Notes under the pieces: generated by a model
Seen by the model: the letters and a program-made list of their open reading frames with translations, nothing else
Told to the model about the DNA's origin: nothing
The model's database searches: none
Shown here: positions 24,693-40,568 of the stretch, in pieces
Layout: each line of letters starts with the position of its first letter
Position numbering within the stretch: position 1 is the first letter of the stretch
Source: Escherichia phage AV112
Length of the DNA: 64,000 nucleotides
Reading direction: 5' to 3' (one strand)
Sequence record: OR352942.1
Position numbers and translations under genes: made by a program

Positions 24693-24881
24693 TTAATCCT
24701 TAGTTAAATTTTCTAAATATGTTTTTAAATCATTTTCAGCTTTATCGATAGATTTTACTAATTCGTAATATGTTTCGGCATCTCCATATTCAGAAGATAA
24801 TTCAAAAGACAAATCCTTTTCTAAACTAATAATTTCACCAACTAAAAATAATATTTCGTTCTTTTGTTCGCGAGTAATCAT
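24693..24881 (-). CDS. small acidic protein, tandem paralogue 1
   Basis: 62 aa; similar N-terminal pattern to the adjacent 63-aa ORF (REQKNEILFLVGEI vs KEQKDKLFSLIHEV). Confidence 0.45.
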   Translation of the reverse strand: MITREQKNEILFLVGEIISLEKDLSFELSSEYGDAETYYELVKSIDKAENDLKTYLENLTKD

Positions 24882-25069
24882 AAGGAATTTATATAATCAA
24901 TGAGTTCTTGTTCTTTATTATCGAATTCTTTAGAAAGTTCTTCGTACTCGTTTGCACTAAAAGGACCGCATTCATTACAAACTTTTTCCAATTCACTATT
25001 TTTATCCATAACTTCATGGATAAGAGAAAAGAGTTTGTCTTTTTGTTCTTTACTTAAACTCATAACCAT
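24878..25069 (-). CDS. small acidic protein, tandem paralogue 2
   Basis: 63 aa; see previous. Confidence 0.45.
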   Translation of the reverse strand: MVMSLSKEQKDKLFSLIHEVMDKNSELEKVCNECGPFSANEYEELSKEFDNKEQELIDYINSL

Positions 25070-25287
25070 GTCACCTTTAAGCAGTATTCTTCTACATGCT
25101 GTTTACGACCTTTCTTATCAATAAAGGTATATTCAACGAATGTTCCGATGTAGTCTTTATCTACATCATGTGGACTATTAATTGGACATTTGGTACGACA
25201 AATGCGTTCCCATTGACGAATAATTACTGCCTTATTCTTTGGGTCATATGGATGTGGATAATGTATATTCATAATAATGGTTCCCAA
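25060..25287 (-). CDS. hypothetical protein
   Basis: 75-aa ORF. Confidence 0.4.
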   Translation of the reverse strand: MGTIIMNIHYPHPYDPKNKAVIIRQWERICRTKCPINSPHDVDKDYIGTFVEYTFIDKKGRKQHVEEYCLKVTWL

Positions 25288-25766
25288 TCAACAATCACAA
25301 TTTCTAGTTTAGTGGAATACGTATCTAAAATCTCTTCGATGACATCCCAGTTTCCACCACCGATACCTGCACCAATTCTTGGCATATAAATTACAGGCTT
25401 TGTTATCTTATTCTTTCCGAATTCATTTAATTCTATTATACAATTCATTAAAGCATAGTACTCAAAATTAGGTCCAGGCTCAAACTGTGTATAAAGATTA
25501 AAGCAATAAGCTTTATGGGTCTTAAAATATTTTTCATAAACCGAATAAGTCCCGAGTTTAGACTCGTCTCCGAATTCGGTTTGAAGTTTATCGGCTTCTA
25601 AAATTTTTGGATAAGCCTTTGCTAATTGTCCTGCCACACCAGCGCCCATTGTATGAAAACAATTACACCCATGAGCAATATTATTACCTTTAGAAAACAG
25701 GGCGACAATATCGCCCTTGATATAGTTTTTAATCACTTGCTGCAAGTCCTCTAGTATAAGAGTCAA
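25269..25766 (-). CDS. macro domain protein (ADP-ribose binding/hydrolase fold)
   Basis: 165 aa; macrodomain-like Gly-rich motifs HGCNCFHTMGAGVAGQL and PRIGAGIGGGNW. Confidence 0.6.
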   Translation of the reverse strand: MTLILEDLQQVIKNYIKGDIVALFSKGNNIAHGCNCFHTMGAGVAGQLAKAYPKILEADKLQTEFGDESKLGTYSVYEKYFKTHKAYCFNLYTQFEPGPNFEYYALMNCIIELNEFGKNKITKPVIYMPRIGAGIGGGNWDVIEEILDTYSTKLEIVIVDWEPLL

Positions 25767-26076
25767 CTAGACGGTCCACCATAGAATTGCATGCTGCCTT
25801 ATCTTTAGGTTCCGCCACCGAGCATTCTAATATTTGCCATTTTTTATAGTATCTTTTAATTAAGGTAGACGCCTTGAACCTACTAGTCGCCCCATCTTTT
25901 TCTCCGTCTTTATACGCATATAACAATTTTTGTGAAAAATCTACTTTACACTCTTGACTTTTACCACAATAATCAGACGCTGTTCTGTTTGTATACTCCG
26001 TTACATCAGTATATGTAGTATTAGCAAGAGCGTTAAATGAAACCAAGCCAACTATTAAAGCCAACATTTTGGTCAT
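25729..26076 (-). CDS. secreted/periplasmic protein
   Basis: 115 aa; signal peptide MTKMLALIVGLVSFNALA. Confidence 0.45.
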   Translation of the reverse strand: MTKMLALIVGLVSFNALANTTYTDVTEYTNRTASDYCGKSQECKVDFSQKLLYAYKDGEKDGATSRFKASTLIKRYYKKWQILECSVAEPKDKAACNSMVDRLVDSYTRGLAASD

Positions 26077-26615
26077 TCTTTTATTTCCAGTAGTTTGTTT
26101 GATTTAAGGTAATTAGCCTTTTCTAGGACTTCAGAAGCATATTTACTTCCAGCACTTGTCTTCCATCCCGCATTATATGAGGATATAGCTTTTCTTATAT
26201 CCCCGTTATGTATATTTAACCAATAAGAAAATTCGATATAAGCCCATCTGGCTGAATTAGACCGCTTAGATAGCATTTTCTTAATTTGGGCATCAGTCAT
26301 ATTATAACCAAGCTGGTTAATTCTTGCCCTCATTGTTGGTAGATAATTTTGGAACATTCCATACGCATGGTGACCTTTCTTATCTTTAAGATTAATACCG
26401 GCAGATGATTCCTGCCATAGTATTGCGGCCATTATGTATCCAAGTCCTTTCTTATGCATGTTTTCATGCGTTTTAAATTTTCCATCCTTAGAAAACTGTT
26501 CCCCAAACTGATAAGCATAATTCAAGTTATCGAGTTGGACATTACTAAAAGTATGCTCGGAGCTATGTGCTGATAATGAAAGAGCAAATAGACCAGCGAG
26601 TAGTGCTTTTCTCAT
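26073..26615 (-). CDS. secreted lytic transglycosylase-like (SLT domain) protein
   Basis: 180 aa; signal peptide MRKALLAGLFALSLSAHS; SLT-like motifs ILWQESSAG, GMFQ, SYNAG. Confidence 0.6.
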   Translation of the reverse strand: MRKALLAGLFALSLSAHSSEHTFSNVQLDNLNYAYQFGEQFSKDGKFKTHENMHKKGLGYIMAAILWQESSAGINLKDKKGHHAYGMFQNYLPTMRARINQLGYNMTDAQIKKMLSKRSNSARWAYIEFSYWLNIHNGDIRKAISSYNAGWKTSAGSKYASEVLEKANYLKSNKLLEIKE

Positions 26616-39740: not shown

Positions 39741-39816
39741 TGGTCGAGACAGTAGGGGTCGAACCTACGACCTAGGACTTAGAAGGTCCTTGCTCTTCCT
39801 TCTGAGCTATGCCTCG
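39741..39816 (-). tRNA. tRNA-Arg (anticodon TCT), CCA encoded
   Basis: Manual fold: acceptor CGAGGCA/TGTCTCG, D-arm GCTC..GAGC, anticodon loop CTTCTAA, T-arm GTAGG-TTCGACC-CCTAC. Confidence 0.8.
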
Positions 39817-39820
39817 GATT

Positions 39821-39895
39821 TGGCGGACATGCATGGATTCGAACCATGGACCAATTGATTAACAGTCAACTGCTCTACCACTGAGCTACACATCC
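39821..39895 (-). tRNA. tRNA-Asn (anticodon GTT), CCA encoded
   Basis: Manual fold: acceptor GGATGTG/CATGTCC, D-arm GCTC-AGTGGTA-GAGC, anticodon loop CTGTTAA, T-loop TTCGAAT. Confidence 0.75.
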
Positions 39896-39899
39896 AAAT

Positions 39900-39986
39900 T
39901 GGTTGGGAGTGATGGAGTCGAACCACCTGAGTCGCAATGACAATGGATTTACAGTCCACACCGCTACCTCTACGGGATAACTCCCC
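39900..39986 (-). tRNA. tRNA-Tyr (anticodon GTA), long variable arm, CCA encoded
   Basis: Manual fold: anticodon stem GTGGA/TCCAT, loop CTGTAAA, about 15-nt variable arm, T-arm GGTGG-TTCGACT-CCATC; pair 1:72 appears as G-A, so the 5' end is uncertain by 1 nt. Confidence 0.6.
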
Positions 39987-39995
39987 AAATTAATT

Positions 39996-40070
39996 TGGTG
40001 GCCCTGGGTGGAATTGAACCACCATCTGGCGATTATGAGTCGCTTGCTTGAACCTTCCAGCTACAGGGCC
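39996..40070 (-). tRNA. tRNA with anticodon CAT (Ile2/lysidine type or elongator Met), CCA encoded
   Basis: Manual fold: acceptor GGCCCTG/CAGGGCC (1:72 paired, so not initiator), anticodon loop CTCATAA, T-arm GGTGG-TTCAATT-CCACC. Confidence 0.7.
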
Positions 40071-40071
40071 T

Positions 40072-40147
40072 TGGTGCTGATTGACGGAATTGAACCACCG
40101 ACCTTCTCATTACAAGTGAGTTGCTCTACCTACTGAGCTAAATCAGC
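40072..40147 (-). tRNA. tRNA-Thr (anticodon TGT), CCA encoded
   Basis: Manual fold: acceptor GCTGATT/AATCAGC, D-arm GCTC-AGTAGGTA-GAGC, anticodon loop CTTGTAA. Confidence 0.8.
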
Positions 40148-40152
40148 AAAAC

Positions 40153-40242
40153 TGGCGGAGGCGATAGGATTTGAACCTATGAGTCGCCGGAGCGACTGCC
40201 GGTTTTCAAGACCGGTGCATTAAACCACTCTGCCACGCCTCC
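40153..40242 (-). tRNA. tRNA-Ser (anticodon TGA), type II, CCA encoded
   Basis: Manual fold: acceptor GGAGGCG/CGCCTCC, anticodon stem CCGGT/ACCGG, loop CTTGAAA, long variable arm, T-arm ATAGG-TTCAAAT-CCTAT. Confidence 0.8.
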
Positions 40243-40244
40243 AG

Positions 40245-40318
40245 TCTCCATACAAGGATTTGAACCTTGGACCTCCTGATCCCAAATCAGGCGCTCTACC
40301 AAACTGAGCTACACGGAG
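40245..40318 (-). tRNA. tRNA-Pro (anticodon TGG), no encoded CCA; 2 nt upstream of tRNA-Ser
   Basis: Manual fold: acceptor CTCCGTG/TATGGAG, D-arm GCTC-AGTTTGGTA-GAGC, anticodon loop TTTGGGA, T-arm CAAGG-TTCAAAT-CCTTG. Confidence 0.8.
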
Positions 40319-40328
40319 TAAATTAAAT

Positions 40329-40402
<74 letters not shown>

Positions 40403-40407
40403 AAATT

Positions 40408-40494
40408 TGGTGCGAGAAGTGGGACTCGAACCCACAAGGAAATCATTCCGCAGCATTTTAAGTGCTGTGCCTTTACCAATTTGACCATTCTCGC
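40408..40494 (-). tRNA. tRNA-Leu (anticodon TAA), type II, CCA encoded
   Basis: Manual fold: acceptor GCGAGAA/TTCTCGC, anticodon stem CAGCA/TGCTG, loop CTTAAAA, long variable arm, T-arm GTGGG-TTCGAGT-CCCAC. Confidence 0.8.
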
Positions 40495-40495
40495 G

Positions 40496-40568
40496 CTGGG
40501 AATAAAGGACTCGAACCTTTGCATCCTGGAATCAAAATCCAGTGCCTTACCAACTTGGCTAATTCCCA
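40496..40568 (-). tRNA. tRNA-Gln (anticodon TTG), no encoded CCA; 1 nt upstream of tRNA-Leu
   Basis: Manual fold: acceptor TGGGAAT/ATTCCCA, anticodon stem CTGGA/TCCAG, loop TTTTGAT, T-arm AAAGG-TTCGAGT-CCTTT. Confidence 0.8.

Follow-up and report, generated by a model that had tools for sequence, protein, structure and literature searches.

The minus strand of the 64,000-nt stretch of Escherichia phage AV112 analyzed here (sequence record OR352942.1; hereafter the window) carries the Mosigvirus ortholog of T4 tk.4, also named adfM (anti-DarT factor, macrodomain). Its 155-residue product is a stand-alone ALC1-like macrodomain, a class that contains known DNA de-ADP-ribosylases, and we consider it likely that this ortholog removes the ADP-ribose that host DarT2 places on thymidine in single-stranded DNA, using an active site built around Gln84. 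Orthology, fold, class, and active-site make-up are established in this analysis. The gene family has long been annotated as a macrodomain and the phenotype of the T4 ortholog has already been reported in a preprint, so there is little new in the identification itself. What the comparison adds is that the T-even protein is not a close copy of DarG and that it has an invariant glutamine at the site of the catalytic lysine.

The tk.4 gene and its start codon

An open reading frame of 165 residues at 25269-25766 had been called from the letters alone; the frame is real, but its start was set 30 nt too far upstream, which added 10 spurious codons. The annotated ATG of T4 tk.4 falls at exactly the position of the window GTG at 25736, and a 468-nt coding sequence is annotated in the GenBank records of phage AV113 and a close relative. 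In other phage lineages, tblastn alignments begin at residue 11 of the longer frame, and none cover residues 1-10. The Shine-Dalgarno sequence GAGGA, which also lies 11 nt upstream of the T4 ATG, does not vary among the window, T4, RB3, and moskry. Together, these four observations define a gene of 155 codons (Table 1), and residues are numbered throughout from GTG 25736. The upstream TTG at 25766, which is immediately preceded by TAG and lies inside the preceding gene, was rejected as a start because the first 10 residues have no homologues, the T4 and GenBank starts lie downstream, and GAGGA is placed to serve the GTG.

Table 1 Features of the tk.4 region, in window coordinates.
Feature	Position	Strand	Description
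tk.4 (adfM) coding sequence	25269..25736	-	155 aa, GTG start, TAA stop included; stand-alone macrodomain; start set by comparison with T4 and GenBank coding sequences
Extra codons of the earlier frame (10)	25737..25766	-	Outside tk.4; 3' end of vs
Shine-Dalgarno GAGGA	25747..25751	-	10 nt upstream of GTG 25736; read from sequence
Loop 1, G23-L38, GCNCFHTMGAGVAGQL	25623..25670	-	Gly-rich; corresponds to macrodomain GxG motif
Asn25 codon	25662-25664	-	In Loop 1; aligns with DarG Asn22 (hhalign, joint alignment)
Gln84 codon CAG, motif N-L-Y-T-Q	25485..25487	-	Where DarG (K80) and TARG1 (K84) have their catalytic Lys and SCO6735 has its essential Gln85
Loop 2, P119-W130, PRIGAGIGGGNW	25347..25382	-	Second Gly-rich loop; Gly126 at the TARG1 Asp125 site (hhalign)
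vs (valyl-tRNA synthetase modifier)	25729..26076	-	Upstream neighbor; PHROG 1256, E = 1e-34; T4 synteny; stop overlaps tk.4 start by 8 nt
tk.3 (DUF7202, 70 aa)	25060..25272	-	Downstream neighbor; Pfam DUF7202, E = 2e-38; start overlaps tk.4 stop by 4 nt
Middle-promoter pattern match, MotA box TGCTTTA and TAGAAT	25430-25455	-	Inside tk.4; the only match nearby
8-bp hairpin, AGGGCGATATTGTCGCCCT	25699-25717	-	tk.4 codons 7-13, followed by a T-rich run; terminator-like

Genomic context and orthology

Escherichia phage AV113, a member of Mosigvirus, the RB69-like T-even phages, matches the window with 100% identity. The minus-strand gene order of this early region, regB, vs.1, vs, tk.4, tk.3, tk.2, tk.1, and tk, is the same as that of T4, where the slot between tk.3 and vs is occupied by tk.4, likewise of 155 residues. 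The two proteins are 84% identical over 155 of 155 residues without gaps (E = 8e-104), and they have in common their length, position, and every invariant residue described below. They differ by 25 substitutions, a point that weighs against transferring function from one to the other, and in their start codons, GTG in the window and ATG in T4. They also belong to different genera, as T4 is a Tequatrovirus, and the anti-DarTG2 phenotype was tested only in T4.

The neighborhood bears marks of exchange. A block of approximately 600 bp covering tk.1-tk.3 (24710-25310) is 97-100% identical to T4 at the nucleotide level, with Tk.3 and Tk.2 100% and 95% identical as proteins, whereas the flanking genes tk, tk.4 (76-81%), vs, and vs.1 reach just 64-86%. 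The pattern suggests that a Mosigvirus and a T4-like phage recently recombined here, with one boundary of the patch lying at the tk.4 3' end. No breakpoint relative to T4 was found inside tk.4, where identity is uniform at 76-81% and rises sharply to 97-100% only at the 3' end. In a comparison of T4 with RB3, Tk, Vs, and Vs.1 are 99.5-100% identical, but Tk.4 is only 57% and Tk.2 only 54% identical, and RB3 has two additional small ORFs in the tk.2-tk.4 region. At least two tk.4 allele types thus exist within Tequatrovirus and are swapped as a cassette, and both retain all of the invariant residues. Cassette exchange of this kind is a common pattern for anti-defense genes.

Several public labels in this region are in error: AV113 (OR352943) names vs "valyl-tRNA synthetase", moskry (MN850651) calls tk.3 a "putative ABC transporter ATP-binding protein" and vs.1 an "endoribonuclease", and a 2026 preprint names T2 tk.4 a "putative thymidine kinase", which we also count as an error. 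The vs.1 gene (26073-26615) has a sub-threshold match to an SLT lytic transglycosylase (E = 0.0013, 18.8 bits against a cutoff of 21.3). Elsewhere in the window, ARAGORN and Rfam locate a minus-strand cluster of 10 tRNA genes at 39741-40568 (Arg, Asn, Tyr, Met, Thr, Ser, Pro, Gly, Leu, and Gln).

Expression signals

A search of the minus strand from regB to tk.4 found no middle promoter with a MotA box upstream of tk.4; the only match to the T4 middle-promoter pattern nearby lies within the gene, and a promoter at this site would drive tk.3-tk from inside tk.4. Matches to this pattern are enriched across the window (17 found against 4.75 expected), while a scan for sigma-70 promoters shows no enrichment, with 14 found against 17.5 expected in shuffled sequence. 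Near the 5' end of tk.4, the window, T4, RB3, and moskry share the same 27 nt around the hairpin listed in Table 1, synonymous sites included, and in the predicted RNA fold, the Shine-Dalgarno region base-pairs with sequence 3' of the hairpin (dG -19.3, z -2.3). The hairpin may have a role in regulation or attenuation, or it may just mark a recombination boundary. For T2, contacts between the tk.4 mRNA and the host sRNA ArcZ have been recorded by RIL-seq, with protein level unchanged in a delta-arcZ host (2026 preprint).

Macrodomain fold and class

The window protein exceeds the Pfam Macro (PF01661) threshold of 22 bits with a score of 27.4 (E = 3.4e-6) over positions 2-117 of the 118-position profile, and it matches PHROG 335 with E = 2.7e-66. 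An AlphaFold2 model built from 56 homologues (pLDDT 94.7, pTM 0.90) has the three-layer alpha/beta/alpha fold with a central mixed sheet, and its top Foldseek match is human TARG1 (OARD1/C6orf130; E = 4.3e-10). A phmmer search against solved macrodomains returns BT1257 (1.5e-10), Poa1p (1.3e-8), SCO6735 (7.5e-5), and TARG1 and DarG (approximately 1e-3). The nearest structural and sequence neighbors are thus the TARG1/DarG/SCO6735/Poa1p group rather than the MacroD, viral, or PARG types, and the profile, phmmer, and AlphaFold2 results together place the protein in the ALC1-like class. The sequence-only reading had proposed a macrodomain protein with two Gly-rich loops; both motifs are present in the frame, and the profile search, the confident model, and the fold searches all agree with that proposal.

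The active site carries a glutamine in place of the catalytic lysine

The residues expected to line the ADP-ribose pocket are strictly conserved. Among 118 full-length homologues, G23, N25, G33, and A35 of Loop 1 and P119, I121, G122, and G124 of Loop 2 are present in every sequence, and the motifs G31-x-G33 and G122-x-G124-I-x-G-G, which lie in the loops predicted to hold ADP-ribose by its diphosphate and distal ribose, are kept in 109-118. Outside the loops, Gln84, Asn80, Tyr82, and Asp49 are likewise invariant (118/118), as are Asn25 and the loop glycines.

The Tk.4 family profile aligns to the DarG and TARG1 macrodomains with hhalign probabilities of 98.0 and 98.1, respectively (the M. tuberculosis DarG and human TARG1 reference sequences match the PDB exactly). 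A joint MAFFT alignment sets N-L-Y-T-Q of the window, T4, and RB3 proteins against F-P-T-K of the PhiKZ-like AdfM and both DarGs and I-T-K of TARG1. The catalytic dyad of TARG1, which has the P-R-I-G-x-G loop in common with Tk.4 and belongs to the same class, is Lys84/Asp125, where Tk.4 has Gln84/Gly126. In a further hhalign comparison, N-L-Y-T-Q of Tk.4 falls on N-M-I-G-Q of BT1257, the solved macrodomain nearest to the window protein; BT1257 is itself 54% identical to Streptomyces coelicolor SCO6735. In SCO6735, the residue equivalent to DarG K80 is Gln85, and both Q85A and Q85E are inactive (PMC9411070). We equate Gln84 with this residue by transitive alignment through DarG, TARG1, and BT1257, not by direct alignment. 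SCO6735 outpaces both DarG and TARG1 in stripping DarT-made thymidine ADP-ribose off DNA and can rescue E. coli from DarT, and a water-mediated mechanism has been proposed for it (PMC9411070).

SCO6735 and BT1257 therefore resemble Tk.4 in replacing the catalytic lysine with glutamine, but they are chromosomal bacterial proteins rather than phage proteins, are approximately 30% identical to Tk.4, and have a mobile loop longer by 5-6 residues; in BT1257, 6 residues absent from the Tk.4 profile are inserted directly after the Gln. The SCO6735 paper ties this longer loop, which Tk.4 lacks, to high thymidine-ADPr activity. With the glutamine present and the extended loop absent, the Tk.4 family has a Gln-type center with a short, DarG/TARG1-like loop, and we do not place it in the SCO6735/BT1257 subclass proper. 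That the protein has neither the lysine of DarG and TARG1 nor the longer loop of SCO6735 counts against our favored reading of it as a DNA de-ADP-ribosylase.

Poa1p, the yeast ADP-ribose 1''-phosphate phosphatase, ranks high among the solved relatives; its known substrates are small molecules, and it has Ser at the lysine position where Tk.4 has Gln. Of its residues probed by deposited mutants, compared here by aligned position, His23 corresponds to His22 (116/118), Ser30 to Thr29, and Phe152 to Gly126. A Poa1p-like role for Tk.4 as an ADP-ribose 1''-phosphate phosphatase, or as an O-acetyl-ADP-ribose deacetylase, strikes us as quite improbable. The position of Phe152 is Gly or Ala throughout the Tk.4 homologues, the "phosphatase" and "A1pp" labels in databases are inherited from an old domain name and derive from no assay, and the only functional data for the ortholog are its DarTG2 phenotype. 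To our knowledge, T4 RNA repair (Pnk/Rnl1) makes no 2'-phosphate junctions, and ADP-ribose 1''-phosphate is therefore not expected.

Relationship to DarG and to PhiKZ AdfM

The macrodomain of DarG2 (Thermus aquaticus 5M31/5M3E, M. tuberculosis 5M3I) carries its catalytic lysine at position 80, where Tk.4 has Gln, and is followed by a C-terminal DarT-binding domain, for a total of approximately 340 residues, that the 155-residue Tk.4 does not have. With the NCBIfam DarG equivalog (338 positions, cutoff 250 bits), the score of the window protein is 30.4 bits, and the alignment is confined to the macrodomain, at model positions 4-146; against the PADLOC DarG model, the protein scores 31.8 bits, compared with 131.5 for a PhiKZ-like AdfM. 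No darT lies beside tk.4, whose neighbors are vs and tk.3. As the catalytic lysine, the C-terminal domain, the model cutoff, and an adjacent darT are all missing, we reject the labels DarG and "DarG2-like" for this protein.

The chimallivirus PhiKZ encodes gp104, a second stand-alone phage macrodomain that counters DarTG2 and bears the identical name. It has been shown biochemically to remove DarT2-made ADP-ribose from DNA, in a paper stating that anti-DarT factors of the macrodomain type had not been described earlier (Cell Rep 2026, PMC13309987). PhiKZ-type AdfM keeps the DarG lysine (F-P-T-K; Lys78), in contrast to the glutamine of the window protein. The distributions also differ. There are 291 phage records with DarG-like macrodomains, most of them from jumbo and N4-like phages and, among the matches listed, none from a T-even phage. 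Tk.4-type genes occur in 2792 phage records that include T4-like phages of Escherichia, Klebsiella, and Acinetobacter as well as Pseudomonas, Vibrio, Salmonella, and Proteus phages of approximately 90 to more than 350 kb; the carriers also include coliphage and Salmonella phage genomes of approximately 90-116 kb outside the T4-like group. T4 Tk.4 and PhiKZ gp104 are thus separate lineages of one class, to which the name AdfM was given independently (Gln-type, November 2025; Lys-type and DarG-like, 2026). Because the T-even AdfM lacks the DarG catalytic lysine, the mechanism of the PhiKZ protein is not simply transferable to it.

Anti-DarTG2 function of the T4 ortholog and proposed mechanism

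The functional evidence comes from T4. When a T4 transposon library was grown on E. coli expressing DarTG2, tk.4 was the single significant gene; its clean deletion sensitizes T4 to DarTG2, while the gene is dispensable on plain E. coli K-12 (bioRxiv 10.1101/2025.11.20.689424). These data, from a preprint, cover one DarTG2 system under the particular conditions of M9 glucose at 30 C; its authors remarked that the protein resembles M. tuberculosis DarG in structure, gave the gene its name adfM, and only proposed enzymatic removal of ADP-ribose from DNA. Our own literature search on tk.4 and macrodomain terms found no biochemical study of a Tk.4-type protein. A second T4 eraser, the NADAR enzyme AdfN (gene 30.3), removes the guanine modification made by DarT1 and is inactive against DarTG2 (PMC11825919).

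DarT2 is freed upon infection and ADP-ribosylates thymidine in single-stranded DNA (PMC11825919, PMC13309987). In the mechanism we propose, transfer of ADP-ribose from NAD+ to these thymidines would block phage replication. Tk.4/AdfM would hold the ADP-ribose through its two Gly-rich loops, a role predicted from sequence, and would hydrolyze the thymidine-ribose bond to restore normal DNA. By analogy with SCO6735, Gln84 probably positions the distal ribose and a water molecule, with no nucleophilic lysine of the kind found in DarG and TARG1. The window protein probably shares the T4 phenotype and acts by the same Gln84-based chemistry. The sequence-only reading had suggested that the protein reverses host ADP-ribosylation, and this agrees with the conditional requirement for the 84% identical T4 gene on DarTG2 hosts; that reading had not recognized tk.4, DarT2, or DNA as the target.

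Tk.4 could also block DarT2 mainly by binding the toxin or the ADP-ribosylated DNA without catalysis. Catalytically dead SCO6735 Q85A, DarG K80A, and TARG1 K84A all inhibit DarT in vitro, SCO6735 most strongly (PMC9411070), the phage factors AdfA and AdfB act through DarT binding (PMC11825919), and the Tk.4 family lacks the canonical catalytic lysine. Nevertheless, all of the expected ADP-ribose-binding and catalytic residues, including Gln84 and Asn25, are invariant in 118 of 118 homologues drawn from many phage groups and bacteria. Such strict conservation of the catalytic center is more in keeping with an enzyme than with a protein that binds a single, rapidly evolving toxin, and Tk.4 also lacks the C-terminal DarT-binding domain of DarG. 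On balance, we judge a purely binding role to be unlikely and favor DNA de-ADP-ribosylation.

Arginine-linked ADP-ribose is cleaved by ARH-type enzymes, and we know of no macrodomain that does so. This bears on the possibility that Tk.4 reverses or tunes the ADP-ribosylation (or RNAylation) carried out by the phage's own Alt, ModA, and ModB, since arginine is the residue modified by all three (PMC8120803). T-even phages do encode these transferases (PMC8120803), and in large myoviruses, ADP-ribosyltransferases are found alongside macro domains (PMC9503650). However, tk.4 is needed only when DarTG2 is present, and the 2792 records with Tk.4-type genes include phages outside the T4-like group, which may or may not encode Alt/Mod homologues. 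With the marks on arginine and tk.4 dispensable in the absence of DarTG2, we give this explanation very little credence.

Just as improbable is a role for Tk.4 in degrading NAD-derived immune signals, such as the cyclic ADP-ribose isomers of Thoeris, or in erasing ADP-ribose from RNA as made by CmdTAC-type systems. T-even phages with tk.4, T4 among them, are robustly restricted by CmdTAC (PMC11618068), from which it follows that Tk.4 leaves the CmdT mRNA modification un-neutralized. We found no genetic link to Thoeris, and the nearest relatives of Tk.4 are hydrolases of DNA- and protein-linked ADP-ribose rather than signal-binding macrodomains. Both a link to Alt, ModA, and ModB and the degradation of a signaling nucleotide had been raised from the sequence, and nothing that we found supports either one.

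Cellular relatives and implications

A scan of one genome per prokaryotic species identified 373 loci with a Tk.4 relative, at 35-46% identity and in many phyla. In the 80 loci that were fetched, the genes stand alone and mostly encode 150-190 residues, with the motif N-x-Y-T/S-Q present in 76. A Pfam census of 137 immediate neighbors returned 165 families with no dominant partner, and DarT is absent from the 25 families seen most often, each of which occurs in at least 3 neighbors. These cellular relatives look like stand-alone erasers similar to SCO6735 rather than antitoxins of a fixed toxin. Within the same census, Exo_endo_phos nucleases/phosphatases occur in 6 of the 137 neighbors and NADAR in 4, the latter echoing the T4 eraser pair of AdfM (thymidine) and AdfN (guanine).

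The spread of the type over 2792 phage records, together with at least 373 loci in bacteria without recurrent DarT pairing, lies behind a broader scenario that we offer tentatively and consider somewhat doubtful. The T-even AdfM may have been recruited independently from a separate, widespread clade of stand-alone, Gln-type, short-loop ALC1-like macrodomains, rather than captured as a DarG2 antitoxin, and, should it share the chemistry proposed for SCO6735, it might be a general eraser directed against several ADP-ribosylating defenses, of which DarTG2 was the first to be found. For mechanism, SCO6735 is a better model for Tk.4 than DarG, with Gln84 and Asn25 as the key residues. If Tk.4 does use the Lys-independent water chemistry proposed for SCO6735, a wider range of linkages would be possible, including ADP-ribose on protein Asp/Glu and other ADP-ribosylated nucleic acids.
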